NCBI GenBank assembly: GCA_040954595.2
Contig: CM082588.2
Span: forward strand, 1,042,613-1,106,612
Direction: 5' to 3'
DNA length: 64,000 nt
Origin: Balanoglossus misakiensis
Taxonomy: Eukaryota; Animalia; Hemichordata
The notes below the pieces were generated by a model, which had not been told where the DNA came from, searched no databases, and saw nothing but the letters and a program-made list of their open reading frames with translations. Below, piece after piece: positions 9,131-50,434 of the stretch; the stretch's first letter is position 1, and the number at the start of each line of letters is the position of its first letter. A program made the position numbers and the translations under genes.

Positions 9131-10273
9131 ATGGTGGCGATGATGGTGGCGATGATGGTGATAATGGGCTTGTTGGTTATTCTGTAGGCCACCCGAGTGT
9201 TCATGGAGAACTGAAGTCACAAGGCCTCAACTCGGACAATATTCCTGTTGTTGTGGGATCTGAAGGGTTTCAAGTTGGTGAAGTTACTGAGGTATGGTCA
9301 GGGATTTTCTTTGAATTGTCATGAAATTGTATGTTTTCTGTAACCATATTCCACCACTATGATTCAGTTCCAATCCATTCTTTCTGATTGGTTCTATAGT
9401 CACTTGCAAATTTTTACTCAAGAAGTACTGATACTGATAATGTTTGTTAATGTTTGCCATGGGTCTTCTTTTCTCAGAGGTCATTGATGGTGTCATATCC
9501 AGATGAGCCAATCACAGCCAAGTTTGTCTCCCCAAGTAAATGTTACCGTGGGTTACACCAGAAAAGCGTAAGCTACCTTAGATATTTTCACAAGTGCCAC
9601 CAATATGTCTTGAAGTCTGTCTCAGTGGATCAGAAAGAAAATAATGTAAAGTTTTTTATTTCCTTGATAGATCGTCAGTCTTGATATTTCTTCTGGAGGT
9701 GCTCTGGGAGTTTCTGCTGCAGGAGATGATGGACGTTTGTTGGTGTGGCAGACCAGTGATGGCGCAGTTCGGGTGAGTCTTCAATTTGACCAAGCTACCA
9801 CTGGTGGCGCTGTTCAGGTGCCAAATATGCTGAATCACAGTCTTTGAGGAGGACTTTGCAGACACTTAAAATTGCAGTGCTGCTCTCAGGGCAGCCAAGC
9901 ATGTACACAACATTCAATGACGTCACAAATTATTCAATAAAAGTCCCGCATATTAGTGCCCTAAAACTGCCAATGGCTGGACCCAAGCTTCTGCAGATTC
10001 CCCTGACAGAACCATCTTTGCTAGTTATTAAATAAATGAAGCCTAAAAGAATGCTCAGGTTTTGAGAGAATGGTTCATGTTTCTATCAATTTCCTTTTCT
10101 GTTGTTTTCAGAGAGAACTAAAAGGTCACGTTGGAGATGTGAATTGTTGTAGTTTCTTCCCATCTGGAATTGTTGTTGTCAGTGGAGGGTCAGATATGCA
10201 GGTGAAGATTTGGTCTGTTGAAGATGGTAGTTGTCCTGTCACTTTGAAGGGCCATACTGCAGGTGGGTCTCAT

Positions 10274-10310
<37 letters not shown>

Positions 10311-13300
10311 TACGTATTGCAGTTAAAGGTATACAGTCACCTCAAAATTACATACGCCCATATATGGCTGAAATGGCGTATTTGAGGGTTCTAAAGAACA
10401 TATGGTGGCGCTGTTTTTTTGCGTGTGCCACCCACTGAAAATCTGTGATTGGCTTGATCCCAATTTGCCATGGTTACTATTGCTAATTTTCCATAGGTGA
10501 CCGTATACCTTTAGAGCCTGCTTATCTTTTTGTATTTTTTCAGTATGATGATTTTTAAATCAAAAGCACTGTGAAGCTGTGATTATAGCTGGATATTTGT
10601 GCATTATATTCCTGCAGGTGTCACAGACACAGCCATTATCGACAGAGGTCGGAATATTGTTTCTTGTAGTCGTGATGGAACAGCCAAACTCTGGGACTGT
10701 GGAGAGTCTACCTGTCTGGCGACGGTGGTGCAATGTGACTGTTATATCAACGGATGTGATCTTGGTGTTGCTAATAATTCCGTCAATCTAGGAAGTCCAC
10801 AAAGTTCAGCCAGTAAGTTGGTGCTAGTTTGTAATTCCCACAAGATTTGCATGCTAAATATTTTTGTGATGGTCGATTTAGAAGGCCTGCTATTTGAGCT
10901 GGTATATTGTTCTTGTAGGTGAAAGAGAAATAGGTACAGAGGGGAAGATTTTATTGCTGGCAAGAGAAGATGGAACTCTTCAAGGAATAGGTTTACATAG
11001 TAGACAGTCGGTAAGATTAAAATGTAAACTTTTTTGTGTTCAGTTTCAAAAAAGACTGCTAAGCCAAACAACTAATGGGCTTTATCAACAGCAACTTAAT
11101 GTAATTTCTATTTGTAGCAAAAGATACTGAGATATTTTTGCCGTTCCTGATCTTTTTTGGCAGATATTTGAATTTTCTGGTTCAGCAGCGTTTAATTGTT
11201 GTGCAGTGTTGTCGTCGACTCATATGATTGGTGGAACACAAGATGGCAACATTTACATCCTGGACATTAGGAACCCCAGGTACTTTGAAATAATTTTTTT
11301 TTAAATTTTGTTTTGGGGGCTCTCACTGGTAAGGCTTCATGAAGAAATATTGGGACAGGGCAATGAAGAGAAAGGTGTAGAATGTTTGTGATGTAGAGGG
11401 CGCTGTTTTTTTCTTTTTTTTCAGTGTCCCCTACAAAGTAATACAAAAGTCAAGGTCGCCAGTGCTGTGCCTATCAAGTTACAACAATGGTTTTATTGCA
11501 AGCACAGGTAAGATTGACGGGTTGTTTTTCAAGGTTAGGTCAAAGGTCGCACGCTGTACGTACACGTGGAAACAGGTCAGGGTGAACATGTACAAGGATT
11601 GTTAAAGTCCCTCAAGCAGCAAGTTAGCAGTTATAATTTTACTTTTAAACTAAAAGCAGTCCATGAAAATGTACTTACTGTGGGTTTTGTGTAAAAAAGT
11701 ACACCTGGCTTAGACTAAGTTTTAAGATTAAAATAAATGGGTTGCCCATTCAAATATGGCTGCTTCTATGCAAATAGCAGAAGATGGTGGACAAGGTGCT
11801 TTTTCCTTTGAAGTCTTCTCAACCCAATCAAAACGTTCATTATAGAAGACTATGCAGAATTTGTACCAAAAGCGTTGAGTAAGCTGCTTTCTGATTGGTT
11901 CAGTGGTTCACTTCGAAAAGTTCGTCTATGGCACAGGTTCAGATGTAGAGAGGGAGAATTCAAAGAACATAATGCCACCGACCACACACAAATAAAATGC
12001 AACATAACTTTCTCTGTTGTCATCTTGAAGTATATATTGCTTGAAATTTTAAGAAAGCATTTCCGTTGCTGCTTAACTTCTTCTCAGTGGTGTGACCTAG
12101 ATAATGACATCACCAGCTTCAACTGTTGATTCAGTATGCGGAAAAAACCTTGATAAAATCCATCTACATCTGTAGGCGGTTCTTTAGATATGTTATTGAT
12201 GAGTCGACGTGTCCAGTGTAGTTTCATTCTATCAGAGTTCATGCACTGTTGCTGACACAGATTTTCTTTTGAAGTTCATGACGTCAGTTTGTGATTCAGT
12301 ATTTATGACACTGATGTGGATTTGAAATGTTTGCTGAAAGTGAAACCAAGAGAAATGATGATCTGTTACCATTGAGATGTCTACATCTAGGTTAAAGTGA
12401 CATTGTTGGAATTCATTAACTGTTGTATTTTATAATAATGATCCAAAGTTCGTGTGTTAACTTTTGCCCCTGGGTGTAACTGGCTGCATATTTTATACAT
12501 GATTACACACATGACCAGTTTGAATAATCAGTCTGTCTTTATTTCTTTTCACTTCTTGTTCTTGGAAGTTTTTAGACTTGATTTGTGCAGAAAAATATTG
12601 TCTTTCACTCCTGTGGTCTCTCTCTCTGTGGACTATGTGCACTACTGCTTGAAATGCTTGGATTTCCATGGTAACTGCGGCACCCATATCCACTAACATT
12701 CAATTTTAGTCCATCTTTGGGATGAAGTCTGGTTTCACAGTACTTTTAAGTTCATTCTGAATGTTTACACTCGACTGCAACACCATGTAGGATATAATGA
12801 TGACATTCACACAAAAACTGTGGTTTTTTTTTACTCAACATCAGAAGTTACACGCTTTGTTTCGTGAACCTCTACACGTAGACCCAGTTCAGTTCAGGTG
12901 AAACTCTCATAATCAGATGCATCTATGTCAATGACAACACTATCGTCATTCGAGACATGCCCCACTGCATTGTGGGATATGGTTACAGGGTCACCTAAGG
13001 TCAAGGCATTTGTCTTATAGGTTGCAGAGACATCATTGGTTGGGTGTACATAGATTCATTATAAATCAGCCGTGTACTCTTCCGTTTTCAAGGTTGTCAG
13101 ACCGAACCATTTGATATCAGGGGTGTGCTGCACAGCAGACACCCTGCGAAAATGTCTTCCTGTTATTCCAAAAAAGAGAGACTATAAAATATGATATTAA
13201 TAGCTATTAATCAATTATTAATTATGTCGCAAATGCTGGTCGTAGCCGACTTAAGATTAAACCCAAAATAAAAAGCTGCATGAGTCTATTGACTCTTGTT

Positions 13301-14275
13301 GTTCCTTTACTGCAACAATGGTTGATAGGTGCTGCAGCAGTGTTGCAGTGCATTGCTGTTGCTGAATTTGTGATTCTGTTCTGTTCTAAATGCAAGTTGG
13401 AGGGGATTGCTGAATATGCTATTCTATCACTTGAGAAGTGTCATTAACTTTTGCTGTTTTCCAACTGCAACATAGTTGCTTTAATTTGCCCACAGACCAT
13501 CAAGAAGACCTGTCTGTGCTGCAACATTGCTGTCTGTCATGAAACTTTAAATACTGTGGTGCTGTCATAGCTGCTGCATTTCTGGGTATGCAACTCTTCT
13601 GCCTGTATTAAATTTTCACTTGGTTCGGCCATTGTAGGAAGGATGAATGACTTCATAGGCAATTTTCTTGTTCTAGAAGTTTCAGTTTGTTGAGTTAAAA
13701 GTACTCAGTGATGTACAAGCTATAAAAGTACGGTCTATTACGTGCTGTAGAAGACAAGGTGTCAAAAATGCACTAATCCTGACATGATTTATATGAAGAC
13801 GACCACAGTTAAGGGGTTATGGTTAACCGCAACCCCTTTATAGTGTTATTTAGTATTAAGAAACTGTTAATGGTTGGTCATGTCATACTCAGATGTTTCT
13901 ATAAACCTCAATGGCTTACAAGTAGCTGTGTTTAATGTTGCTGATGCGTGTCATCAATAAAACATGTCAGTTGTAATTTGATATTAATATTAGTCAAGTT
14001 CACATTCATGGAATTTAGAAAAAAATGTTTTGGTACAGAAATTTTGTGGAAAGGTTTGGATTCCATGGTGCTTTGTGAGTGTCCTAGATTCAGGGCACTG
14101 TGGGACAGCTGTTCATATGTTTCAGCATATGCCATTGAACTGTGTACATAATGTCTTCTGTAGTCTGAGATCTGATAAACAGACTGGTCGACCAGTGGTG
14201 TGAACTAAAGCCTAGCCATCACTTTTGTCATAATTCATCTTTAGTATTGTGTTACCCTGATCTCAAACTCAGCAT

Positions 14276-14364
<89 letters not shown>

Positions 14365-17300
14365 CTAGAAATTGATTGTTTCCTTTAGCTGTTATCATTT
14401 AAATTGAAAAGATTGTAGTCTGGTGGGTAAAGTGAACTTTTTCACATCTTAAAATGTAGAACTGTGTGGTTTATTTACTTTAAAATTGACAACTTATATA
14501 TAGTATAAACAGGCATTTTTGATAACTATTCTCAGAGCAGAATTTATGGTTATTGGTACAGTACAAGGTCACTGTATGATGTGTTGTTTGTACCTGTATG
14601 GGATGGAGCAGGATTGAGTTTATGGGGAAGTAGGACAGTTCATTGGGGTGAATGGTTTGACAGTGTTGCGTTGAAAGGTCGTGTGTGTCGATTGATATGG
14701 GCCAAGGACGGTGGCAGAAACTTCTACCTCAAATTCTGTGAAATAGTAGTCAATTTGTGTGAAAACAGACCCCATTAGGCGAGGCTTTGCAGTATATAAT
14801 GCCCAGATTCTGACATGATTAATCGCTATTTTTAAGACTAGCCGGGTTTGAATTGTAGGCTTTAAGTAGACATGAGAGCGAGGAGAGTTGAGCGTGTGAG
14901 CAACAAACCAGCCTGTCAAGGTCATATCGACAGACTGAATTGTCGCTGTGCCATGGACACTGTCTGTATTCTAATGCATTCTCTGCCCATACTGATGATA
15001 TGACTGTGTTCACCAAGTTGATTCGTGACGCATGTCGTGTGTATGACCAAAATTTATATTCCAGATTATATGAATGAATATTGGTGACATTTAAATGAAT
15101 ACATTATATCTCTGTTACTTGCAAATATTGATGTTTTGTGGAGGAAATTATCTGTGTGATAACGTTCAGACTAAAATATGATATTTTGTGTGTAGGGTTA
15201 GCATGAACAAAGCAAGACAAGAGAAGTGCTCTGGCTTCTGACTGAAAATTCAGTGTTGCACATACATGTATAACAAGCAAGGAAATGCCCAGCATTTCAG
15301 TATATCTTGCAAAATCATTACTTATATCAAGAAAAAAAGAACTTCACACGATAGTCACATAGATGCAGCCAAGTTCAAGTGCACTTTCTCACCCTGAAGT
15401 GTAGCATTGACATGCTAAGCCACAGTGAGGCCTTGATACGACCATGAATGTTTAAGGTCTAATACACCTAGTTCAAGTTCAAGGCAGGAGTCCCTTTTAA
15501 TTAGAGACGCATGGTTCCGATCATGTAGGTTCATTCATTCATTCATTCATTCATTCATTCATTCATTCATTCACTCAGTCACTCACTCACTCACTCACTC
15601 ACTCACTCACTCACTCACTCACTCACCCATTCATTCATCCATTCACCAATTCATCCATTCATTTATTCATTGTTTGATTTATAATGTAACAGCGGGAGGA
15701 ATGACTTACCAAACTATTGTTGCCACTCCTCACCCATGACCCGACCTTGTCATCTGACAGAAAGGCAGACATGCAAATGAATATGTTCCAAATTCTCATC
15801 ACTTCAAAATAGCTAAAAATATCTCTTTATTAAAGAAAATCAGAGAATAAAAGCATCACATGTACTTGAAACCATCTTTAGCAATTGACTAGTGATTATG
15901 AGGTGTGCTTTTCCCTACAGTGGTTGCTAGATTATCAAGTTTACTTAACCATAGTGGTAGCTAGACACTGACCAATCATTACCAAGTTTACTTAACCATA
16001 GAGGTTGTAAGCCACTAACCAATTCCAGTGTAACTTAAACATGCTAGTTACTTTACCAACCATATTACTTGAACTGTGTGGTTGCCTTGCAAACAGTCCA
16101 AAGTTTGTACTTTAATTCCCAGTCAGGGTGGTGATATCTACAGGTTATCAAATATTTATTGTTGCTAAGTTTGTAGGGAATGGATATAAATACTGCCAGC
16201 ATAGATCTGCATTCAGTCACGCACCTCCCAATCATTATTTTTATTCATAAGTAACATCTTTGTCACTGAAAACCAGTACAAGGCCATTTGGAGTTAGTTT
16301 CCATAGTGATTCTCTTGGCCCTGACCTAAATTGTACGTTTGCCATGAGCTCACTTGTCACTGGCCTTCACTGTCCTGCTCAGGTCAGGCTAACTGTATCA
16401 GCAGGCAAGTTCAAGGTGATCAGTGCCTTTTGCTTGAATTCTTTGTTCAACTGCACACAGCAGAGACATTTTTAAATTCCTTTGTTATATTACACATTTC
16501 TCTTGTTTTAAGATCATCTCAAATTCACATGTAAATTGTCCTTACATCTTTTCATTACATTCTCTAAGTGATCGCTTCAAATAATGGGGAAATTCAAGTA
16601 GCTTAGAAGATTCTTCAACAAAAGACAATTGTATTGTCAACTTTCTGTTGATTGTTACATCAAATACATCAAATTGCACATTACAGGCACCAGCCAGACA
16701 GCCAGGCAACACATTCCATGCAGAAAATATAATCCTTTCAAAATAATTTCTGTTTAAATATAGACGAGTCATTTCAATTCATGGCAGCTGTGTCACCCTG
16801 CGTTCATGTTAATTGACAGCCAGTCTATTGCAGGGGTGTAGTTAAATACAAATGTCTGTAATTAAATGCATGAAAGTTCAAAATGGGGCCATGGAGATTA
16901 TTTCTAAAAGTAGATTTTTGAACAACGAAATGCATAAAAAAAATGGAGAGATGTCTGTTCTTGTGCAGCAGTTGTCTGACACAAGAGTACTATGGTCAAA
17001 GTTTAGTTGGACCCACAAAACTTGACATTGGTAATTTGGTTTGATACAAGGCACATGAATCTAAAACTACTGTAGTAGATGAGGGGAAAAGACACTGTTC
17101 ACCCTCACATCATTACCAGGGACATTTCATGTAATTGTACTTGGCAAAGCATGATGGGTAAAATCCTCCTTGACCTGAAATTGTAATTGTCTCATTTTCC
17201 CTCATGATCATCCCAAAATTGCCACATCCAAATTTCAAATTGTCTCCAAACTTGCAGCAAAAAGAACACAACTTTTCCTGGAAAATGTGTTCTATAAAAT

Positions 17301-17489
17301 CCTAATGTGGACACATTTATCTCTGTTTATCCAGGTGATGGCACATGTTATTCCATGAACCTGGAGAGTAACCATACGGAAGAGTATACTGGGTCTGACT
17401 GTGATCCTATCTACAGAATATCGGCTCATGGAAAGTCTCTATATACAGCTTGTAGAGACAAGCATATCAGAAAATATGCTATGAGTTAA
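8478..17489 (+). CDS. PAAF1: Proteasomal ATPase-associated factor 1 (WD40 protein, Rpn14 homologue)
   Basis: 11 exons: 8478-8524, 8869-8909, 9188-9291, 9478-9567, 9671-9772, 10112-10262, 10618-10812, 10919-11010, 11164-11279, 11425-11507, 17335-17489. The spliced protein (MAARMIIQCDWDDALR...LKGHVGDVNCCSFFPSGIVVVSGGSDMQVKIWS...DTAIIDRGRNIVSCSRDGTAKLWDCG...EREIGTEGKILLLAREDG...TGSDCDPIY...YTACRD) follows human PAAF1 end to end as I recall it. Confidence 0.95.
9041..9165. repeat. Compound (CTG)n(ATG)n(GTG)n microsatellite in PAAF1 intron 2
   Basis: Directly visible; it produces the poly-H/Q and poly-I ORFs on the minus strand. Confidence 0.95.
10274..10307. repeat. Poly-G tract (about 34 nt) just downstream of the PAAF1 exon 6 donor
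   Basis: Directly visible. Confidence 0.95.
10327..10510. mobile_element. Non-autonomous DNA transposon (MITE), Kolobok-like
   Basis: TIRs AGGTATACAGTCACCT ... AGGTGACCGTATACCT (1 mismatch), flanked by ttaa and ttag. A related fragment lies at 44381-44474. Confidence 0.75.
14276..14361. repeat. (CAT)n microsatellite
   Basis: Pure CAT run of about 28 units. Confidence 0.97.
15529..15670. repeat. (TTCA)n/(CTCA)n tetranucleotide microsatellite
   Basis: Directly visible. Confidence 0.95.
15918..16060. repeat. Degenerate ~47-bp minisatellite (2-3 copies)
   Basis: caagtttacttaaccatag occurs at 15936 and 15983, followed by similar ...cactRaccaat. Confidence 0.7.
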
Positions 17490-18897
17490 ATATGAGCTAC
17501 ATGTATGATTCGTGGATGGGATGTCATTATTGATAAATAGCTTGATGTTGCGTGCGAAATTTACCCTGACTGAGTTTGCTCTGTAGCACCCTGACCTCAA
17601 ATCGAAGTCATCGTGACCTTGAACTTCCACAGTGCAAAGATTTCTGTCACCTTATATTCCATTAGGACAAAAGTACAGTCCCTCGAGCTCTTTCACACGG
17701 ATGGTGACAAAAGCAATGAGGAGGAGGAGTCAAATAGAATAATCTTTCCTCACTCTTAGTTGAGTATTGCACGTATATGTACAAGTTTTCTCCAAGTGGT
17801 ATGACTTCTGAAAAAATCCACACGAATTTTGTCGATATGAGTTTTAGAAATCCACATACTGATTGTCATAAAGCTATATGGAAAGATTTCTTTCATTTAG
17901 CAGAAGATGAATTTCTTATTTTCGAATATTTTTTTCAGAAAAAAGCTTAGTTTATTGTTATTGATCTTAGTGAATAATTGTTCTATTTAATAAAGATTCA
18001 TAGGGCAAAGTTGCCCTTGTTGGCATTATTTTGGTGATTTCTATTTCATGTTCAAAGTTGTTTATGTTATTCTGCTAGCATACTGCCCGCACACTCATGG
18101 TAATCTGACAGATAGATGCACTGATGACATGATTTTGATATGTGATGTCATGTCTAGTTACATAATAGAAAATTCACATGTACCAGTATATTTCAGTTGG
18201 GAACATTTACTTCAAAATAACAAAATATTAGTATTACCAGAAAAGAGCACCTTCTGTCCCAGGATGGAATGATTGTCTGGTTGAATCAATAAATTTATTG
18301 ACTGGAAGTGTTGATGGTCAGTTTTCATCGGGAATGCTGCAGGCGACTATTCAAGACAATGGCATTTATAAAAATACAAGTACTTGGAATCAACAAACTG
18401 AAATAGCAACCGGATCTGTGAACATTCAAGTGAGAGGAATGCTGGACTTTCTATGACAGATGGTTTGCATTCACTCTCACTGTCTATGAATGATTTCCAA
18501 TACATGAGTCGGGGCCTTAGTTACTTCATTTAAATCTTTCTGTTGATGACAATCCAGGCAATATATTGAACTTTTATTTAGTAAACTGATCTATCTCATG
18601 TTACAGAGGCTGCTCGCTTGCTCTAAACATTCAGCAACTTGAAAGGTTTCAATACTGTTCTTTTTCCATATAGACCACATTAATCAATTCCTTGAGGACA
18701 ATATCATTTTGAGAGCATGATATTTCTGATAGCATTGGTTTACCTTCTGCCAAAATGTTGAAATCTTCCTCGAAATCCCCAAAAACTTAAACAGTCTTGG
18801 AGTGACAAACTTTCTTCCATTGTTCACTCCATCATCCACATAGCATCTTCTGAAACAGCCTTTCTCTTCCAGAAAGTAATTAGGCTGTTAACTTACA

Positions 18898-19008: not shown

Positions 19009-21302
19009 ATCACCAGAGGTCAGAAAAAGTTGCTGAATTTAATTTTAGAAATCTTTGTGTAATAAACCCTTCCAACAAATCTCCCCGGTGCAGGACCTGA
19101 AACATGTATACCAATTTTGTACAGGTTTGTGTCACCAAAGATGTCACATAGCTGTTACCATGGCAGTGGCTGATGCGTAGGTCTCTATTCAGTGCTGTGG
19201 ACACAGACATGTGAATGAGGACTAATTTTCAGTGTAAGCGCAAATATTGCTTATGAAAATTAGGACATTTTCGTCAAATATTCACATCTGAAATCTTGTG
19301 AATTTTCGAGGCCCTCACACCCTGCTTATCCCTGATTTCACAGGCGTTTCGTTAACTGGCAATTTTGTATACCAGTGGTAGGTGTAATAAATCTCGAAAA
19401 CAAAAACTTGTACCCGATATCAGCTGTAAAATAGATAGAGGACCACCAGGGGGGGGGGGGTGGGGTGGGGGGTGGTCCCATAGAAACACCATGCGTTTAC
19501 GTATGTGCCGCCCGACTGCACTACCCTGGATGATGGGTCCGCTTTTCATAGAAGTGGGGGAAGTGAATAGGTCTCAGGTTTTAGAAGTTGGTCACGCTTT
19601 AATTATATAACCCTGTTTTTCTTTATTCGCACGAAATCGTACAGCCTGAGATTTAAAAGCGGGTGGGTAGTTAAACTCAAGAGTTTTGTTTGAAAGCGGG
19701 TTGAGTTTCAGTCGGAGGAGTTGGACATCCCTTCCCTGACTGTATTCTTTCTATTGCACCTGAAGACTTTCACATCACTAACACAAAAGTTGGCCAGAAA
19801 GTTGCTTTATTAACTTCACATTACTTTTCAAGGCCCAAACACAGAAGTATGCTGGATTATCTGCCTGGAAAAAGTTAACTTTGCACGGTGGAGTCCCTCT
19901 ATTTCCTCACAAATACAACACATCTTTAAAAACCAAAATCTTCCACGTTCAATTCGTGGGGGATCAATTAATACTGTATGCTTGATTCCGTGTGTGAATA
20001 GAAATAATTATTGTTTTGTCATGGTCGATGTTTGCGCTTTACGACTTATTTCGACGTATTGTTTCGACATCAATGCCTTTTTCTCTCTCCTTTTTGTCTC
20101 CTGTCAACTTTTGATGACGCTAATCACATGTAAATTGGTTTCTAGTCAATAGGAGCATGCGCAAGCACTGAAGGACCTTCATTCACCAATATTATCTCAC
20201 TACTCTGGTAATTCATTTTCCAGGGCACTGCGCCGCGCTCCAAATTCATACAGCCTCTAGCCAATCAGTATCACCCAAGTGTGATTAACATAAAATATCG
20301 ACCAATGGAAATGACAGCTAATTTTAGCATGTACTGACTGAACTTTTCACCTGTAAAGAAGTATGTCGCTGTCATCATCATAGTCGGGTAAATGTCCATG
20401 TGATCGCTCGCGCTTTTTGCCCAGCTCTGCATACGTACTGCACACAGCCCTGCGGTTATCCGTGGCAGAGTTTCCACAAGCCGGCGTGTGAGTAGACTTG
20501 TCAGTTTCAAGCCAACATACAGGTGATTACGGCACCAGTCTAGTCTCTACTTCGTTCCAGACCTCGTTTTTTTTCCCGGGAAGGGTTTTTAAGAGGTAAT
20601 TCTAATTTGTCTGTTTAATTTGCTGTCGACTCACGTTCGGTTCAGTTCTCGCTTGTTATTGCTTGAGTTATCCAACATTACTTCACGATGGTCAGTGTTT
20701 CGGAGCGGGCGCCCAGAATTATTCCATGCAGAATCAAGTTTTCGTTAACTCTTTGGCAATTATTTTTGTTGGAAGTTCTCTCGCAGAATATTCCGTCAGA
20801 TATTTTTGTTTTAGATTTTACAATTAAAAATGTATATGTTGTTTTGTTTGGACGTAGCATATAAACAAATAACGGTGCAGTTTCTGGTGCGTCGGCGCGT
20901 GTGAGTCAGCAACGGACACAGGCTCAAGGCCGGCCACCAATCACGCAAACTTGTTGGTTTCAACCGGCTGAAATCGACATACGCGACCGAGTCTGCTTGC
21001 GCAGCTACGCGGCGTTCGTGTTCGACGTTCACCGGTAAAAGTAGACTTCGTACCGCACCGTTAATGAGTACACGTACGTACTGTCCAGTGGCTGGGGACG
21101 GACACAAGTGTGTTACTTTATCAATGGTTTGAACTATCAACATAGTTTGGAAACCGCAAATTCAATAAGCCACCACATAGGTCCTCAAAGCGGTTTACGC
21201 ACATTCTTCGACGGGATTGTATTACTTGACCAAAGCCTATTCTGGGCGTGCATTTTTAACTCGAGCAATTTGTCTCCTTTTCTTAAATAGAACTGCAGTG
21301 TG

Positions 21303-24300
21303 ATGGATGAACACGAAGATCAGTCCTGTCAATGCCCGAACAATGAGAAACAACCTGAGCACAGTATACTCTACAGCCTCCTTGCAAGTCCAACATCAGC
21401 AGTAACCATGGAAACTAACAGCATCGTCCCAGCAGCTGAGAATCCAACATCTCGAAGTGGATTGCAATATAGTCATTTTTCTTCTCATCATCACAACCAT
21501 CATCACCACCACCATCATCATCGTCGTCACCATCACCACCATCACCACTGTCATCTTCATCGTTACCAAGCAGCTGCTGAAGTTTCTGTGAAACCACCGG
21601 ATATAGTGGGACAACAGGAGGCTGCTCAACTTCTCTTAAAGTCAATGGACTTCATCAAAAATCTGCCTGCTTTCTGGGACTTGAACAGGGAAGATCGTCT
21701 GCCCCTGTTTCTCAATAGTTGGTCGGAGTTACTGATTCTTAAGATGGCTCAAAACAAATTCAAATTTGAAACCGAAGAACAAACATTGGAACAATCTCAG
21801 GAGACCGTTGCGGCCAAGGTTCACAAGCCTCAGCAAAGTATACCACTTTTGTCCGACATCAAGAAAATCCAGAGTTTTATACGACGATGTCAATTGCTGC
21901 AGCTGGATGATAAAGAATATGCATATATTCAAGCTATCATATATCTCAACCCAGGTAAGTCCTCTCCTTGTATAATACTGGGTACTCTCTATAAAGATTT
22001 GTCGTCAATTTCAAAGTTGTTCTTGCATTGTGGTAATGAATTGTATGTGGGTCAGTCCAGCAAGGTACTTAAGTGCATGAAGTGTGAAAAATAGTTGGAA
22101 AGACAGTTCCTGGTTGTCATGAATTTGTAGCCTCTGATGAGGGTTATCGAACAATGTACATTGTCATTGCCGTGACTAGCGAATGGGTCTTGTCAACTAC
22201 TTTTTCACACGTCATGTGTCTTTCCTTGCAAGACGAAATTGTGTTTTGGTAGCAGTTTCAGTGACTCCAATCTTTTTTTAATATCCACTAAATTTTATCA
22301 CGTGTAAAGGGAACATTAAATCTTGAAGTTTATGGCAACTTTAGTGGTGGTGAATTGTCAGCATACCAGTTTCAGAGATAACGTACTGGTAGAATGATTT
22401 TGGCGGTGCCGTAGTTTATTTCGGTTAAGAAGAACACATCTTTGTCTGGGAGATCTGCTTCCATATTTTATTAAATGTCAAACTGTTGTCATGGAACCTT
22501 TTGTTGCCAGTGACGTCATTCTAACTTTATACTTCCATATAAGGAAAATCTGACCTCCTTGTTGGGGTCAGGTGAGAAAAACCAATAGAGCAGACTACAA
22601 ATCTGCCGTTTTATCAGTTTTTGACCAAATAATAAGAATTTTAACATGGCTATTCCCCAATACCTGTCATCATAATGTTTACAAATAATTAGACTGAGAT
22701 GTAACTCTACCATGAAAATGATACAACATCATAATCAATATTTCAAAAATTTGACTTGGTTTTTATTATCAACTTTTCAAAACTTACCAAAGTACACTTA
22801 CTTTGTAAAGATGTGATGATAGTGCAGGGAAGGTCTGATCTAAAAATAGTTGAATAAACAGAGCAAAAACATTAACCCTTGTTCTGTTTGAAACATACAT
22901 TAAATTTGATCCAGATAATTAATAATACAATAATCATGTCAAATTGAACTGAGTTGTGAACATTAATAATTTTTAACTGACATTTCAAAATGTTCACATT
23001 GTCTAGTTTCTTTTAAATACTCCTCTGAATAAAGTTACATTAGATAATGTGATCTCAACATATTTTCTCATATGTTTTTTAAGGGTAATTATCTAATTTA
23101 GTAATAGTCATTATTTCCTTAGCATTATTTAAGTTAACTGTCTGAGCATAGCAGAACATAGACAAATGCGGAATTCTAAGCGAGCTGAACCGGCCACCCC
23201 TTCACTAAAATGATACGTTCCATGTCTGGTGCATAAATATCTGGCTCCCTTCCACAAAGTATATACACGAATTCAAGGCCGTTCAGCTATACTTTGAAAA
23301 TGAGGACACGACACACGCTACTTCCCTCTGACCTGAACGCAAACACCACTCCTTATTTCTGCCTCTGTTCTAATTTCTGGCCGAGCTCCACATGTTTTTG
23401 CGGTGTGTACAAACGGATGTTGGGCAGACACGACTCAGTAATCAGTATTTCCTGAATACAAGGCAAAAATCAAGCAGTGGTATTCACGGGTCATCGTGAC
23501 CTTGGCATTGACCTTGTTCCTTGATTCATTAGTTTTGCTGACATTGGGATGGAATTAGTGCTGGTATAGATTTGATAAAAAATCGAATACTAAAACCGAA
23601 TGGGGTTATTTTATGTTGTACGGTCATGGATTGTACGCTTTGAGGCCAAGGTCAGAATAGTGCAGTGTTCAATGTAAGGATGTCAAACCATAGAAACGCT
23701 CTATGTCATTCAGTGCTGTCCAATCATAGCCCTCTATACTTATCAGTTATTCTCAAATGTTGGATCATTTCTTTTTGTGTTGTGACCGATTTGTTTCTCC
23801 GAAACCCAGTTTCGTATTTGAATAATATGTGGACACAGGAGACAGGATGCTGTAAAAATAACACAAATTGCGGAGGATAAGTACAAAGTGGTGAATGATC
23901 GTCAGAATTAATTAACAGTCCAGCCTCCGCTCATGTAGGGTTGAGTTGAGAGGTTCAAGGAAAAGAACATTAGCATAGTCTACCCCCATTGACTGGTACG
24001 GTCACCATGACGTCGGTTACCATGACGTCATCGCCGCAATTCAGAGTCCGGGCCGGGTCTGTTCTTCATAGCTTATGCTAAATTCAGATATGTCCTTCTA
24101 TAAAATTAGACAAAAAAATATAATTCGGTTTTCATTAATATATGGCAACAAGTATTGATATCAGTCAACATAGGTGAAGAGGTTCTTCATACCATGTACT
24201 GGGCAAGGAACTAGAAATGCCCGCTTTGAGTCACAACTGGTAGAATGAAAGACTACTTGAAACACTGCAAAATCAGACAGGGAAACATGCTGCCTGAAAG

Positions 24301-27300
24301 CAAACAAAGAAACAGTAACGGAACAAATCATATATCAAGTGAAAATCCCCAATCCCAAATTCTCAACTTTTGGTAACATTTTACAGTGTTTTATCAATCG
24401 ATTTATTGTCTGGTCTGCTGGTAGTTGTCCTTCGTGTGGTGGCCATGGCCCTCAACCGACAACTACTGGTGGTCACCACATTTATATTCCGTGCACATAT
24501 TCCAAGCAGTAACAGTGAGTTCAAGAACACTCACCTCAAGGATAGACAGACTGCACTTATAGTGTGCGATTCTGTAAAGGTACATCATAAACTCAAAAAA
24601 AGCATTTGTTAACTCTTAAAAATACGATATCACATCACAAAGATTTCTTTTCAGATCTGTTTCTCATCCTGTGAGTTAACATGTCAGGATTACGAACATA
24701 TATGATTGTGCGTCCAATTGATGATACCCTTGACATGGGAAGATTTCACCTTCAACGGACATTGATCTTTATAAGGTGACCCCGACCTGACGTAGCCTTT
24801 TACATTTAGCAAATGATTCAAGATTGATAAAGCAGCAGGATTTTTCATTGTCATACTGGCACAGTTACAGTCTATAATCCTGCTTTGGAGGAAAGTGTAT
24901 GTTTTTACCCTTGTGATTAAAACTTCTTTTGATGGTCATGGTTAGATAATAGGTGTATGATCAATTAATTTCTCTGATGATAAGTTTCTCTCATATTTTA
25001 AATGTAGGGTACATATCAAGTTTGTTTGATGAAAATTACCCAATGTTGTATCAGACATTACTTGGGAGAACATTGATGGATGACAGTGACATGTCCAAAA
25101 AAGTTCATTTTGTTAGCAGCTGTTAACAACAAACATAAACAGCCATTTGCACATAAAAGCAAGCAGATGCATACTGTGTTCAGGTCAAGGTGTTCTGGTT
25201 GGTTTTGTCTCTGAGTTGTTACCAAGGTAACAACTAGTTCATTGAAACGTGACAGCATCTTTAGTTTTCGTATATATTTAACGCTACACACACCTGTACA
25301 ATATGTAGATAGTTCTATTATCCTAAAATTGCCTACAGCATATTGACACCAGTATACCACATTTCATTATCTTTCCAGAACCATTTCATACAAAATTTAA
25401 TTCAGGGTTATATCGAATATATTTGTATATAATCTGCTGGTTCTATATAAGGTCAGTTTGCATGAGACTCCACCTGTACATGGGCTGTTTGCGGATTTGC
25501 ATTTAAAATAGGCTTGGCTGGGTTAGAGGGGGTGGTACATGTAGAACGGATTGGTAGCAAATTTCTGTTCAAGGCCAGTCATATAGACAAAGCTCCAACA
25601 ATAAAAGTACAGATCGCAGCACACACTATTTGACCAAACGGCGCAGATGATGATTGCACATAATGGCCGAAAAATACTCAGCATTGTAAACATTCAGTCC
25701 ACAAAAAGTCTGCTTTATGCAAGTCAGTGGAAAAGAAATCCAATTTACTGGTATTAATTCATTCTGATTTATATTTTGTTTCATGAGGTGATTTCGACCA
25801 CATATACATATTACCCAGTCCTACCCGTCTGTAAAATGGTGCGTGCCATTCTTCCAAGGTCATCTCAGTTCAGACTGGGGACATGGACTGTCTCTGCCTC
25901 AAATTAAAATCCCCATGATTCATAGTCGAGAAAGGTGCCAGATTTTACGACTTCGCATTGAAACCCTCAGTGTCTTTGTAAATGACCAAGGACATTGCTT
26001 TCATTCGCCAAGCTGCAGTAAAATGCCAAGCTGCAGTGAAATATGCTGATTAATGTCTTGTAATGCAGACATTGCAACAAAGAGATGTGAAGCATATCTT
26101 TGCCAGAGGTTTTTGCAACTTAACAAAAACTCTCCTTGCACATATTAATTCTTACAGCAATTTCAAGATCAGCTTTTCACAAGATGGAGGTTGTGTCTGA
26201 TATTAGCATAATAATGCCAAGAACACTTCAGTGATAGATGGGCAGACTGATAGGTTGTGTTCTTGAACTCCGCTTTGCTTTTCATCTTTTTATTTTACTC
26301 TTAAACACAGTGGTGTGTTGTCCTGCAACAAGGGCTTTGGTCTTTCATTGTTCAAATATCTATCAGCCATAGTCACCCTGTCAGCGTTGACAGTATCAGG
26401 GTTATCCGGTCATGGCAGCGCATGCGCTTGTTGAAGGTCACAGGGTCAAGGAAAAACCTACGGCTTGCAATGGATAAACACCAAAGTGGGGCATCCGAAT
26501 TCCCAAGGACACAACTCAGAGGTTTTTTATTCAGACGAGTACTTTATTAAATAAATCAAAATTGTTGAATATTTGCTGCAAGTTGTCTAGCTGGCCAGTT
26601 ATAATTTTTAGGGATTTGTCTCACTAGAATGTGACAGATATGTGATAATATCCATTCAACAAATAACTTACATGATCATTTGTGTGCCCTGATAACCTGT
26701 GTTCTGTATACTTGCTTAATGTCTATGACTTTCTGGGTAGAGAATTTTAGCCTGGATGTGCCACAGAACAATTGGTACTGGTAAAAACAATTCAAAAATG
26801 GACAAGTCTGGTAACAGTTAAATGACCAAATCACTGCTTTGGAAACTTGTGTACATAAAAATCTGATGAGCGCCCCCTTGTGGTCATACATTTGGTTGCT
26901 GATTACCCATGATCAGTTTTATACTTTAGTCATACATTTATTCAAACAGATAATGTTGTAGACTCTCAACTTTCAATGGACTTTAATTATTTAAATGGTG
27001 TTAAAGGGTTGGGAAGTAATGAAGTGCATTTTAACTTCCGGGCCTAATAAATTTTAATATTCATCCTTTCTATTAAAAGGAAGTACAAAGTTCATTTGGT
27101 AGGGTTTATAGATTTTGTTGAGGATAATTCTTATGTTAATGTTGGGTAATTTGAGTTGGCGTAGACAGTAAATCACCTTAAAACAGTAAAGTTCAGTCCA
27201 GTTGTATTTTTCCTGCAGATAAGTTGTTGATGCCATGATGTGTCTGGCACTGTTTGGTTCAAGGACAGGTCTGGCGGCCGTCGTATATCCTCGACTGGGT

Positions 27301-30298
27301 GCAGTCGAGTCGCATATAAATGCCATAAAGTTTAACAATGGGCTGAACTTAAAACACATTGCTGACATTTTAAAGAAATCTAGCAGGTAGGCACTCATCG
27401 GGAAATTGATGTGGATGATTGGAGCCCCCATGGAACATTATTTGAAGAAAAATTAGATTTTTCTTTGTATTCATCTATGTAGACAATTATGAAATTAAAA
27501 TTTTCATAATGGAAATTGTAACTGAGTAATTTAGAAGTCCCTGAAACTCAATATGCCGGTTTATTTATAGTCAGTTAGTCCCTGTATATGATTAGAAATT
27601 TAGTCATCATACTTGTAGCATTCATGGTCAAAGAAATTTTCAAAAAAAAACTAAGTAGATGGTAATCAAGGTCTAAATTATTAGTGATGGTAAAAATAAA
27701 TCAGCCACTCTTTTCAGAGATGTTTTCCATCTTCCTCTAATAAGCTGTCTACATCCCCTACTCCCTCTATCAAAAGCTCCCCTTTCTCACAAGTAATCAG
27801 AAATGACTGCAAGGATGTTGAGAAATACATGGATTCAAAAAGGACTTCGGGTTAGATCCTTGAGATGAAATCAAGATGTGAGGATGGACTTCTCAGAACT
27901 GAGAAGAAAAGTTGTTGCCGGGCGACAGGGATGATGATGTTTACTCTCTGATGGAAGACTGTCATTGCATCACTGTGTCCTTGACAACCGTAGAAGACGT
28001 CTAAAAACTGACCCACATATTCAACATATATTTATAGCAGAGTCGTACAGGAAGTCACCAGTAATTGTTGCCACGGTTGTAGGTTGTTGATGAATGGGTT
28101 TTTTCTACGAATTCCACCTTTTTTTTTACATAGCCTGGTTTACATTTTTATGGAAAAGAGGTTAGCGTTCAATCACCCCTGTCTAATCTGCATAATCAGT
28201 GACACCCATCTCATTATAATAATTTATTCGCAAGGTCAGCATGACGAAACCTTAATATAGAATATGTAGTGAAATAAGCTCCGCCCACTGATGAGAGTTA
28301 AGTAGCTGGGCAAGGACAACCCATGATGAGTATAATGTGCGTCCTACGTCAGCCCACAACCAGACAGTAAAGGTGTCACAGTATAATTGACTGCTCATTA
28401 CTCTATATCATAAAAGTCAACATCTTGGTACCTCCGTCATAAAAGTCAACTTATCTCCGACGAGAACACGAGACGAGCATCACCCAAAGAAGTTCTCCAG
28501 TGAATCTACGGAAAGAGAAGACACTGTGGTAGCACAGCCTCTGGTGGCTTACTACAGTGATAGCCGTCGCCTTGTCAGAAAACTGTGTCCAGATATATAA
28601 CAGTACTAGTTGTGAAGACGAGAAAAAAAACCCTGATGTCGAGTTTGGAGTCCGGACCCTGTACAGCCGCTGTGTCCTCACACTACTACAACAACACCGC
28701 TATCAACTATTCCACCAACAGTAAGAAGAGCAATATGGCCAGTGAAGTTTGTTCTCAAGCATCAGCAGGAGTAGACTGTAACTGCCCGCCTCTGGAGTCC
28801 AAAAACTCAATCTTGTATAAACTACTTACAAATACTGTGTGCGGGGCACCATGCTGTCGCAAGGACCACCATATTAGGAGAGAGATGACCAACCACCACA
28901 TGGAAAATAGCAAATTGAAAGTACTTTTACAAGAAGTTAGGAATGAACAACCAGTACCTTAAAAAGACTCCAATGTATGCAATGTCTTAACAGTGTTTAA
29001 AGGTTAGAGATCAGTTATTTTAAAATTTCTCACAAAGTCCTTCTTCTGTGCTACTGGTAATTTTCTTTTTCACAGTATTGTCCGGGTTGAAAGCTGATTT
29101 GAATTCAGGTGGATCCTGTCACAATACAAACAGAAAAAAATCTGTGAGACTGAAAGAAGAGCTGAAAGTTGATTACCGGTGTTACGTTTTTTTATGTTTA
29201 TTACCATGACACGTCGAAAACATGACACAAACTCTGGCATGATGCCAAATAGGAAACATGCTAGCCATCTGACAGACTGCTCAAGGCCAGTTATTGACAT
29301 GGCTTTAGTTTTCAATGCTCAACCAAGGCAATGTCAATGTAAAAGTCAACTCCATTGACTCCATCTACACCTTTTGACTTTCAATATAGTCACCATGGGT
29401 CAGCTAGGAGTTTTTTCCCTCCAGATTTTCATTAGTAGCTAATTACCCAATCGCTCTTGACTACCTGTTGCTGGTTGCTTTTTTTCTTTTCCATGTCCAT
29501 GAATCAGAAGATACTTAATGGTTTAGACAAATGTTAACCTTGTTTTCAATTCCAGATTTAGTTTCAGTTTTCTTGATATCGTAATTTGTAAACCAGTTAA
29601 GAAACCAACTGGTCTTTGTAGCAAGGAGCTTGGTTTATAAGCACTTCACTACATCCACCATGATTTGTTTCAAATCCATGTGTCTTCTGTGGTATAGACT
29701 GGGGGAACGGTATTCAATTGGATTGTGGTCAATTGCTCCCTCCCTCCCCCAAAGTTGTTTGGGTTTCAACGACTTCTTTGGCATTTTACTGAGTTGAGTT
29801 GATGGGATTGGTCAAGATAAGAGTGTGGTAGTTTTCATAGGTTGAATCTCTAGATAGTCTGTTACTTTTTAACCCTTTCACCACCATGGTTTGGTCCAAA
29901 TCCATTGTTTTGTATGGTAAAGTTGGACCTCTATAGACGAAAACAGGGGTAAAAGGTGTCTGGCAGAATAATCACACATCAATCGTTATTAATATGTGCA
30001 ACATAGTTATGGTGATGAAAATAATAATGACGATTTCTTTCTTTAATTATTTGCTACAGAGACTCCATCATTGCTTAACCCCGCTGCTGTGGAAGAATTT
30101 CAAAGCGACGCACAGTTATGTTTGAGTGAATATGTGATGGCCATGCATCCGAACGACCCTCTCCGGTTTGCCCGAATACTTCTGGGCCTTCCATCACTTC
30201 GTAACATCAAACGACAAGCTCTCATCGAGTTGTTCTTTCGTCCATTGATTGGTGATGTCTGTATGGAGGAGGTATTAGCAACAATGTTACAGCAGTAA
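21303..30298 (+). CDS. NR0B: NR0B-family (DAX1/SHP-like) orphan nuclear receptor without a DNA-binding domain
   Basis: Exon 1 21303-21954: CQCP...SILYSLL NR box, His tract, and LBD (LLKSMDFIKNLPAFWDLNREDR..L....WSELLIL...LQLDDKEYAYIQAIIYLNP). Phase-1 intron after NP. Exon 2 30060-30298 (RFARILLGLPSLR...LIELFFRPLIGDVCMEEVLATML*). No zinc fingers. A good acceptor ending at 21290 suggests an unlocated upstream 5' exon. Confidence 0.93.
28225..28455 (+). promoter_or_regulatory. Putative internal promoter upstream of the intronic ORF
   Basis: CAAGGTCA (28231), GC-box-like ctccgccc (about 28279), CAAGGACA (28311), CRE-like tacgtca (28345), and duplicated tcataaaagtcaac (28408 and 28437; CATAAAA is TATA-like). 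Confidence 0.4.
28735..28962 (+). CDS. Putative 75-aa LxxLL microprotein nested in the NR0B intron (frame open from an ATG at 28636, 108 aa)
   Basis: MASEVCSQASAGVDCNCPPLESKNSILYKLLTNTVCGAPCCRKDHHIRREMTNHHMENSKLKVLLQEVRNEQPVP*. Strong Kozak context (aatATGg). CxCP...SILYKLL mirrors CQCP...SILYSLL of NR0B exon 1; second LxxLL is LKVLL. Confidence 0.6.
   Translation: MASEVCSQASAGVDCNCPPLESKNSILYKLLTNTVCGAPCCRKDHHIRREMTNHHMENSKLKVLLQEVRNEQPVP
29869..29957. mobile_element. Short piggyBac-like (TTAA-CCC) MITE remnant
   Basis: ttaaccctttcaccaccatggtttggtccaaatccattgtttt...ggggtaaaagg; shares internal sequence with 37650-37728. Confidence 0.55.
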
Positions 30299-33200
30299 CT
30301 CTACAAAGTATCAGCCTTTTATACTTGATATGCGACAAAAAAAAGTTGTGGAGAAAGGATTTTATTTATTTATCTTTCTTAAATGTTATAAATTGACATT
30401 TTAGGATTAAGCTGTTGAATAAAAACCCTTGTCTGAATTTACATAAAGATGCTATGTAAAATATTCACGTTTTTTCTTCTTTCATCATGATATTTATTAA
30501 ACTAGAAAAGACAAAATAATAGTATCGAAGGCTGGTACCGGTTACACTGTGATTTGTGAGGCAGCTATTTTCAGACTTAAAAGAGAGTACAAGTTACTTT
30601 GTTATAGAGTAGACTGGCAAACTCGATTAATAAATCATTTATTTATATGATGTACAATTGTGCTTCACCTCTGATCTTCTCCCAACGCAGCTGTTAATAT
30701 CGTGCATGTTTAGAGAAGTTATAAAAGTTATAACCGAGATGTTTTTATTTGCTGTAAACAATATGTTAATAATATTCATATTCATTTGAATCCACTTTGT
30801 TTGTTATTGAAGACTTTGTTCAAAAATCTGTTTCTCTCAAATATTTGAATTTTTAGTGAAACATGCAGAAAGCCATTCCAAGAATTTAGATAGTGATACA
30901 TTGTTTTGTCAGATAGTAAAAGCACACATCACCATTTTGTAACATTGTACTTCAGAATGGTAACATTGTTTCCCACAACTGTAACAATGTATTTGCAGAT
31001 TGTAACTTTGTATACAGAATTGCTAAGACTTTTTAAACCTTGATCTTTTTGGATTCCGTTTTTCGTTCCACTTTTGGTTAAATTCTTACAAGAATGCGAC
31101 TACCGGCTAACATAATTTATTGCCTATGATGGGTTCTCTTTATTCACCTCAGTGTGTCTGCAAAAGTAAATGTTTATTTTGTGATCTTAAAAGTTTCTAC
31201 ATTTTATGATTTGTGATACAAAACGAGAAAAGGAAGAGTTTGACTGGAGAGAAAGCATTGTTAATGTTATTCCACAAAATCGTGTTTGCATTATGAAAGT
31301 AGGAATAGTGTATATTATGCTAAGAGAGATCTATTTTATTGGCTTATTTAATTGAAGTTCACCAAGTGAGCTAAAGTAAGAGCATCTGTTACCTACCATA
31401 TTCATCTTTCTGTAGGAGTTCATCTGAATGTGTTAGACTTTCTCTTTATTCACTTTTTATAGTTCACTATCAATCTTGTTTTTTCACCCGCTGTTTTCCC
31501 GTTACATTTATGCAGGATTTCAGTCCACAAGTTCTGAGTGCATTCATGTGTACTTTAGTTCAAGTCGAGTTTCACTGCAATTGTGTACTACACGAAGTAA
31601 GTTTCCGAGACGTGTTTTGAAATTTTGTGGACAGATTTCATTATTTTAAGTTCAGTTGGCAAATCCCAGTTTGACCTGTAGTAACACTTGTAAGCATGCA
31701 AGATATTTTTGTCACTGAACAATGAAATATATCAGCTTGAGAGGTCAAGGTCATTGCCAAATATTGGGGGCCGATAGTGTTACCACAATCACGTGAATGC
31801 TTTCAGAGAAAACTCAGAATGTTTGTGATGACAAGAAATGTAACTGGAAGACGGTGATTTGTTGATAGTTTTGTCATTGATAAAAAAAATGTACTTTGTA
31901 AGTTGCTTAATGTGCCGTGGGAATTTGTCAAACAGACTCCAGTGCACAGTAGACAGAAAAGAAATTCATCATCATGAAAATCTTGTTCCTTTCATTCACG
32001 GTCGGTATATAAATAGGTTGAACATTTGTTATTCCACACATTTCCACTGGCACTCTGAACAAACAAGCTAATTTGCCTTGAACTTGACATTAAAAGAGTT
32101 AATCTAAGCAGTGTATAAGCACGACAATCCTGTATTGTCCCTGGTGAACTTGTGCTAACAGTGTCAGTCCCACGTCAATGCACGCATTTACGCTGTTTGT
32201 TTCATATTTTTTCTCATCAAGATTCAAATATCGATTTCGATACTTAGCAATTGCGAATTATGTTCGTCTGGGTGACATGGAAGCATGTTTTTCTGAAAAC
32301 AAGTGTGCTATTTTGAATCAGTAAGATCTGAGGAAATATGGGAATAATACTTGATGTAATCAAATGAAGAAATCAACAGATGGACGTGTTAATGTAAATT
32401 ATAAGGAAAGTGGAGTGTGGCATTGTGGGATTGATCACGCAGACTGTTTTTTTTACTGGAATCTGGACACGAAGCAGATTTACAATTTAGAAAAGTCATC
32501 TAAACAGTCATGATGTGTATTTTGATGTTAAAACGGTGCAATTTCAGGATTCATACAGTACTTTATATTGAGAAGTTGTAGTCAGTAGCCACGCGCACAT
32601 TCTCTATGATTGGTTTTAGTCACACTGTTATCACAAAACATAATGTTCCTTGATGGTAATACTTTTTGCACAATTTTAGTGATGTTAATTTTTTTGTTTG
32701 ACTATTTTAAACTTCAACTGAATGTACAAAACCACAACATTGAAACTGTTGTTTGTAGTTGGGACCCAGTGGTTATAAAAGATCATCTGTTTTGGACCAT
32801 TTTTTTGTAGCGAGTGTCCCAGTTTGTGTGTAGAAACTAGCTGTGCGATTTTTCAGATGGAGTTTGGTGAGTTCTAATGAAATCCAATATGAGTACTGGG
32901 AAAAAATGTTCAAATACAAAAATATCTAATTCTGAAGGGCAGGTTACAAGAAAAACATTTTTAAATCGTGGCCTTAGTGTTGAAAAATGTGGAAACTTGA
33001 TTAAGTTTATTGAGAACATAACTGTTTACTTCAAGGTAAGATAGCCTTGACCACAAGTTGCCATGGTGACAAAATTATCAAGGTCGCCGTGTTTTGTGGT
33101 AGGTCAACCTGTCACATGTTTTGATGATACTGACAGTCGAATCTACCAGCCAGAACTCGATGGCCTTGGTTTGTCTCTGCTTCTGTTTTAAACACAGCCT

Positions 33201-36465: not shown

Positions 36466-49257
<12,792 letters not shown>

Positions 49258-49831: not shown

Positions 49832-50434
49832 CTTTCTTCAATTTTTGACAAAAATCATGGGTTATATAGGTCATGAAAATCATCCAAAAATGACAATTTT
49901 TCGACTTCGCGAAATTTCAAAATTTCTTCATTTTTTGACGAAAATCATCCAAAAATGACAATTTTTCGACTTTGCGAATTTTCAAAATTTCTTCACTTTT
50001 TGACAAAAATCATGGGTTATAGCTCATGAAAATCATCCAAAAATGACAATTTTTAAACTTTGCGAATTTTCAATATTTCTTCACTTTTTGACAAAAATCA
50101 TGGGTTATAGCTCATGAAAATCATCCAGAAATGACAATTTTTCGACTTTGCGAATTTTCAAAATTTCTTCATATTTTGATTAAAACCATGGGTTATAGCT
50201 CATGAAAATCATCCAAAAATGACAATTTTTCGACTTTGCGAATTTTCAAAATTTCTTCATTTTTTGACAAAAATCATGGGTTATAGCTCATGAAAATCAT
50301 CCAAAAATGACAATTTTTAAACTTTGCGAATTTTCAATATATCTTCACTTTTTGACAAAAATCATGGGTTATAGCTCATGAAAATCATCCAGAAATGACA
50401 ATTTTTCGACTTTGCGAATTTTCAAAATTTCTTC
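49832..50434. repeat. Diverged 88-bp satellite block in inverted orientation (about 6-7 units)
   Basis: Unit catgggttatagctcatgaaaatcatccaaaaatgacaatttttcgactttgcgaattttcaaaatttcttcactttttgacaaaaat is a diverged reverse complement of the main monomer. Confidence 0.93.

Follow-up and report, generated by a model that had tools for sequence, protein, structure and literature searches.

Does the intron of a nuclear-receptor gene in the hemichordate Balanoglossus misakiensis contain a second, small gene derived from the receptor itself? The question is raised by a 64,000-nt stretch of contig CM082588.2 (GenBank assembly GCA_040954595.2; positions 1,042,613–1,106,612, forward strand; hereafter the window), in which the intron of an NR0B gene holds, on the + strand, an open reading frame (ORF) carrying the N-terminal signature of NR0B receptors, C-x-C-x7-SILYxLL, with its nuclear-receptor (NR) box. 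Judged from its sequence, this ORF is a partial paralogue of the NR0B docking domain, real, non-random and old. It may still be expressed as a stand-alone 75-residue NR-box peptide without a ligand-binding domain (LBD), predicted to occupy the AF-2 groove of partner receptors without recruiting corepressors, a reading to which we give a probability of about 0.4.

A copy of the NR0B N-terminal domain

The ORF starts at ATG 28636 (108 aa) or ATG 28735 (75 aa), both forms ending at one common stop (TAA, 28960–28962), and sits in a 132-codon stop-free frame, the longest of the intron (Table 1). Its position and sequence are as the first-pass annotation had given them for an ORF on the receptor's own strand in the 8.1-kb NR0B intron.

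Table 1 Features of the NR0B locus of B. misakiensis and of the ORF in its intron (positions are those of the window).
Feature	Position	Strand	Remarks
NR0B first coding exon	21303..21954	+	holds N-terminal box (21327-21383), His run and first part of LBD
NR0B phase-1 intron hosting the ORF	21955..30059	+	8105 nt
NR5A/ERR-like half-site CAAGGTCA	28231..28238	+	upstream of TATA-like box
TATA-like box, candidate intronic promoter	28594..28600	+	42 nt ahead of first ATG
108-aa form of the ORF, upstream in-frame ATG	28636..28962	+	weak start context
75-aa ORF, likely main product	28735..28962	+	A at -3, G at +4 of ATG
NR0B-type Cys pair and NR box 1 (C-x-C-x7-SILYKLL)	28777..28827	+	
Second Cys pair and His residues	28852..28872	+	aligns with second Cys cluster/His run of NR0B N-termini; modest significance
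Second LxxLL (NSKLKVLL)	28906..28932	+	overlaps match to V-x-L-[KRQ] linker preceding helix 3
Splice-donor-like site, moderate	29003..29008	+	40 nt after stop; phase 1 in ORF frame; rank 21/541 GT
NR0B last coding exon	30060..30298	+	C-terminal part of LBD
NR0B poly(A) signal, first AATAAA downstream of ORF	30418..30423	+	likely shared

Read in six frames, the window has SILYxLL at two places, the ORF and NR0B exon 1, and the same is true of the full pattern C-x(1,2)-C-x(7,9)-[SATG]IL[YF]x[ILM]L, which was drawn from vertebrate, acorn-worm and amphioxus NR0B and set after the ORF had been seen. This pattern was present on the + strand of none of 3000 simulated introns (in one, counting both strands), and its analytic chance is 8e-5 (about 1e-4 per intron strand). 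A box-only profile (29 columns from exon 1, acorn worm and amphioxus, with the ORF left out) scores 40.7 on the ORF and 18.3 +/- 2.3 on controls, where 0 of 379 windows reach the ORF and none exceeds 26. The ORF thus has the Cys pair and LxxLL-like box of an NR0B N-terminus, and simulated introns and control windows alike bear out the earlier proposal that it is paralogous to the receptor's N-terminal box.

The signal is a short motif that general tools do not detect, and is significant through its form and place. BLASTP of the ORF against exon 1 gave no significant match, with a hidden Markov model (HMM) of three N-termini, searched over 2313 window peptides, it reached E 1.2 (domain E 0.14), and an HMM built without exon 1 left it outside the top 10 of these peptides. 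Scores that are not significant at window scale would suit either a motif that arose by chance in an open frame of the intron or an overlapping, unrelated gene with an exon here, as would the ordinary length of the ORF (an ATG ORF of at least 108 aa is found in 16% of simulated introns, one of at least 75 aa in 75%) and a weaker box look-alike on the minus strand (24875–24807), where a Cys pair is followed eleven residues on by SILxxLL in an 81-codon open frame. However, the look-alike fails the NR0B pattern (tblastn E 2.8) and is probably itself chance. The ORF combines the full pattern, at the frequencies given above, with the correct strand, a position within the gene that bears the only other copy, and collinear downstream elements, and an origin by chance or in an unrelated gene is very unlikely.

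Collinearity, of modest significance, extends over the whole NR0B N-terminal domain: start methionine, Cys pair, box, second Cys cluster, His residues and V-x-L-[KRQ] linker are all represented, the start methionine stands at the position homologous to the NR0B N-terminus, and the stop falls ten codons past the linker match, where the LBD would begin. Whole-ORF alignments to three N-termini were equalled by 2, 9 and 43 of 3000 shuffles. The first-pass view that the ORF outside its boxes is unlike exon 1 is accordingly too strong, as this part aligns in order with the N-terminal domain of acorn-worm NR0B as far as the linker preceding helix 3. The second LxxLL itself (28915–28929) can be read either as a repeat of box 1 or as the NR0B linker, and the two readings would be compatible had the linker turned into a box; the linker position in other NR0B is non-LxxLL. 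Among 33,637 random open stretches, NSxLxxLL occurs in 10 and a Cys pair followed by the linker in 15, both patterns being post hoc, while 5.4% carry LxxLL alone and 0.6% SxLxxLL.

Age of the copy and the missing ligand-binding domain

Because box 1 keeps six of the seven residues of its exon 1 counterpart while 10 of 21 bases differ (the serine is from another codon family), the ORF is, on sequence grounds, an old duplicate held at the protein level. Blastn of the ORF against exon 1 returned short chance words only, and no repeat among the 20 largest families listed connects the two. A recent DNA duplication of exon 1 was rejected, there being no DNA-level match, and the earlier reading of a motif kept rather than recently copied stands. 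Selection acted on the copy's protein some time after duplication: in neutrally mutated exon-1 copies (20,000 per level) the motif and 75 open codons survive together in 0.02% at 30% divergence and in 0% at 50%. Any one codon has a probability of 0.003–0.005 of lying in a stop-free run of at least 132 codons.

No counterpart of the LBD accompanies the copied N-terminus. Pfam matched no family in the ORF and no nuclear-receptor family in the three read-through frames after it, HMM read-through beyond the ORF gave no LBD match at 28937–29209, and a frameshift-aware profile detected no LBD remnant downstream (369 of 377 controls score as high); for exon 2, the corresponding profile score downstream of the ORF was reached by 190 of 377 controls. 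The absence of an LBD, as first annotated, is thereby upheld for copies of limited decay, decayed LBD copies being detectable to about 30% divergence (40 trials per level) and invisible beyond about 40%. Helix-3-like and helix-8-like stretches picked out by eye at 28937–29209 were discarded, their single-sequence frameshift scores (23 and 24) being reached by 254 and 271 of 314 controls. As the ORF has no LBD with a C-terminal repression/AF-2 region, it is not classed as an NR0B receptor. Either the copy never included the LBD part, or this part was later deleted or has long since decayed.

Retention at the protein level would be explained without present function if the ORF were a dead relic, that is, a tandem exon-1 duplicate, long an alternative first exon or paralogue, that lost its LBD by deletion, is unexpressed now and has an open frame only because the loss was recent. 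The donor-like site that follows the stop by 40 nt has the ancestral phase 1, as expected for an internally deleted exon-1 copy, although agreement in phase is a 1-in-3 coincidence. Such a history also requires that some 350 nt were lost at the domain boundary cleanly, recently and without trace, and the presence of a second LxxLL-like box at a linker that is non-LxxLL in others suggests change after divergence. We consider a dead relic somewhat unlikely.

Candidate signals for transcription and splicing

Over the 1.3 kb ahead of the ORF there is a single TATA-like box (by chance, about 0.05 per 100 nt), and no other ATG lies between it and the ORF; together with the good start context at 28735, it would fit an intronic transcript.

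Splice sites were scored with a generic matrix. The first-pass annotation had found no convincing phase-1 donor after the boxes. This holds inside the ORF, where the only such donor after the box, at 28856, is not usable (score -8.5; true donor, 8.8). Past the stop, the donor-like site at 29003 is in frame with exon 2 except for the ORF stop and is followed by further donor-like sites at 29057 and 29109. Ahead of the box, the phase-1 acceptor-like sites at 28667 (1.4, rank 20/476) and 28769 (1.1, rank 30) come close in score to the true exon-2 acceptor (2.4, rank 13), and exon 1 could therefore splice into the ORF.

With these sites the ORF could be a coding exon of a spliced NR0B isoform, in one of two forms: exon 1 would join it in frame as an alternative last exon, giving half an LBD and then two boxes in a DAX1A-like product, or the ORF would be an alternative first exon joined to exon 2 by donor 29003, in frame if the stop were absent (an allele or an assembly error) or bypassed. 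DAX1A, a human DAX1 isoform, and human SHP isoform X1, with an alternative tail (Dataset S9A, PMC13012086), lend this some precedent. An isoform of this kind is unlikely: inside the ORF the box is followed by no phase-1 donor that could be used, and either product would have only part of an LBD. As the copy takes in the whole N-terminus, including a start methionine at the equivalent place, and has a TATA-like box, it also fits a first exon better than a last one.

Three of the intron's six strongest acceptor-like sites (29076, 29425 and 29556) lie less than 600 nt past the ORF stop, and splicing in the 3′ untranslated region or alternative last exons are possible uses of them.

NR5A-type sites (consensus YCAAGGYCR) are concentrated at the locus: seven of the window's 14 lie in 20.0–30.5 kb (cluster 20924–29289), against 0.4–0.7 expected, a number that none of 300 simulations per Markov order (three orders) and none of 200 permuted motifs reached. 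Six of the seven are in the intron. The cluster suggests that an NR5A–NR0B feedback loop may be present in this invertebrate.

Proposed function of the intronic ORF

As a stand-alone peptide, the ORF would be expressed from a transcript initiated downstream of the TATA-like box (28594) or joined by splicing to a non-coding 5′ exon. Translation would begin mostly at ATG 28735, and the transcript would run to the NR0B poly(A) signal, either unspliced or using donor 29003. Nonsense-mediated decay follows a 50–55 nt rule, and this donor would be close enough to the stop for likely escape.

SHP binds partner AF-2 surfaces via LxxLL-like boxes and represses by coactivator competition and corepressor recruitment, for which its N- and C-terminal domains are both required; its promoter is driven by LRH-1/SF-1, and NR0B dimers are also mediated by LxxLL and AF-2 (PMC3346990). 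By extension from SHP biology, the box helix of the peptide would block coactivators on NR5A/ERR-type receptors and, without the C-terminal repression domain, the peptide would not recruit corepressors. It would keep the coactivator-competition arm and lose the corepressor arm, so a passive competitor is predicted. Alone, such a peptide would lower partner activity modestly, as a weak passive inhibitor; alongside full-length NR0B it would relieve NR0B repression, within the NR5A–NR0B feedback loop, or, in a variant, it would bind NR0B's own AF-2. That the locus holds a conserved nested daughter gene without LBD, its two-box peptide under NR5A control and tuning parental repression, is our tentative proposal, with odds somewhat short of even.

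Several results limit the case for a peptide that is made and used today. The part after box 1 alone aligns weakly (scores equalled by 125, 94 and 354 of 3000 shuffles), and the single-sequence structure model, in which two predicted helices (residues 26–35 and 57–70) carry the two LxxLL motifs, is of low confidence (mean pLDDT 56). The decay simulation speaks for selection at some time after duplication, not for present-day selection. Codon usage favours neither side: the 75-aa part scores -0.14, compared with -0.15 to +0.36 in eight real coding segments, and the measure ranks the ORF frame 5 of 47 among intron open stretches. At the ORF, CpG observed/expected is 0.46–0.71, as against 1.26–1.40 at the NR0B promoter, and there is no CpG island. 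No AATAAA or ATTAAA occurs from the ORF stop to exon 2, and, with no canonical poly(A) signal before 30418, an ORF transcript would share the NR0B 3′ end. In libraries thin on small animal ORFs, a word search gave no orthologue among seven candidates of 59–189 aa, and of 1.84 billion representatives only two matched with E no higher than 0.001, both unrelated repeat proteins and rejected as artefacts. The NR5A-type sites, finally, could just as well serve the regulation of full-length NR0B. The lack of an own poly(A) signal and CpG island, the codon usage, which does not decide between the readings, and the empty orthologue searches would all agree with a dead relic.

NR-box peptides are familiar within large coregulators and as synthetic inhibitors, and a boxes-only gene, if that is what the ORF is, would be a natural version of such a peptide. 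With it, a receptor lineage already without DNA-binding domain would have lost a domain for the second time, and NR boxes would be seen to multiply in trans, via a nested partial duplicate, and not only in cis as in mammalian DAX1. Small same-strand intronic genes tend to escape annotation pipelines, and the NR0B introns of other invertebrates are therefore worth screening. The two SHP/DAX1 repression arms, coactivator competition and corepressor recruitment (PMC3346990), would in this animal be separated in life. Should the ORF be a relic or minor isoform, it would still be a modest record of NR0B exon duplication.

Relatives and comparison with known systems

Exact look-up found no orthologue of the ORF (0 of 3), in protein libraries that cover small animal ORFs poorly and returned only two proteins even for NR0B. 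Metagenome pattern scans gave 384 and 247 matches, none confirmed; a PDB sequence search with the ORF gave one match (E 7.1), an Atlas search was uninformative (best scores 0.78 and 0.81), and Rfam had 0 matches in 19–34 kb. No description of a nested NR0B gene without LBD was found among the titles and abstract openings of the literature covered, most subscription papers and some supplements lying outside that coverage.

The closest likeness is to the NR0B N-terminal domain of SHP/NR0B2, single-box fish DAX1/NR0B1, G. talaboti and B. floridae (the last two described below), with which the ORF shares the order of elements. In zebrafish dax1/shp and mammalian SHP the Cys pair stands seven residues before the box core (Dataset S9A, PMC13012086); the ORF has the same spacing, whereas host exon 1 has nine. 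Unlike NR0B receptors, the ORF has no LBD or AF-2, lies inside the intron of an intact NR0B gene and has a second LxxLL at the linker.

DAX1A consists of the normal exon 1 plus a short alternative tail. It has in common with the ORF a truncated NR0B product, sequence in the same conserved intron, and interaction by LxxLL motifs, which for the ORF is a prediction; where DAX1A has a short tail, the intron of B. misakiensis codes for the boxes themselves a second time. microProteins, truncated paralogues that keep only the interaction module (e.g. Id proteins), provide another comparison. By this definition, the ORF has microProtein structure, being 75/108 aa long with the box kept and the LBD absent: it too is small, comes from a larger regulator and has the docking module without the effector module. 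It differs in that the module is a short linear motif and the parent a receptor without DNA-binding domain, its expression and dominant-negative action being predictions.

NR boxes of NR0B N-terminal origin are also multiple in mammalian DAX1, whose repeats number 3.5 × 66–67 aa (PMC5159745), and in spiralian NR0B (Platynereis), with several LxxLL-like motifs (Dataset S9A, PMC13012086), so multiple boxes are not unique to mammals. In both, the boxes are in cis with the LBD, and unit length and spacing differ from the ORF. The first-pass annotation had likened the ORF to a DAX1 repeat and offered it as a possible relic of the duplication behind the repeats. Neither idea survives comparison: the ORF has neither the 66–67-aa unit (PMC5159745) nor a KDH four residues before the box, its boxes being 34 codons apart and its KDH separated from the second box by 13 residues, where human DAX1 has 4 (Dataset S9A, PMC13012086). 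PMC1891300 assigns the repeats to mammals and gives a single copy for the other vertebrates studied, and amphioxus, acorn-worm and host NR0B have one N-terminal box each. The mammalian repeats are a separate event from the ORF duplication.

The host gene and its surroundings

PF00104 (nuclear-receptor LBD) is found in both NR0B coding exons and Pfam listed no zinc-finger DNA-binding domain family, the combination that marks NR0B receptors. Exon 1 has 57% identity to NR0B2-like of the acorn worm Glandiceps talaboti (XP_078001459.1), its sole database relative (one of 77 candidates); that protein, used as query, also returned amphioxus NR0B (Branchiostoma floridae, XP_035686413.1; two of 974 candidates), and its top solved relatives are DAX1 and SHP. 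The gene has two coding exons and one intron located in the LBD, a two-exon structure that is conserved in NR0B (PMC1891300). A His-rich low-complexity run in exon 1 (21473–21562) is shared with G. talaboti and missing from amphioxus.

A CpG-rich promoter region of NR0B (20000–21291; observed/expected up to 1.40) and an acceptor-like site at 21291, directly ahead of the NR0B ATG, point to a likely non-coding 5′ exon. Further upstream, at about 18330–18375, a short helix-3-like stretch was the best of 377 control windows, but is not significant (HMM E 0.34).

NR0B is flanked by a WD40 gene (10040–17490, +), presumably PAAF1-like, and a DEAD-box helicase (about 37800–47200, +), which we take to be DDX10-like. 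A C-type lectin exon lies at 1915–2511 (-). An 88-bp satellite occupies 49940–64000: 154 copies with 99% match extend from 50435 to the end of the window, and about 5.6 copies in the reverse orientation lie ahead of them.

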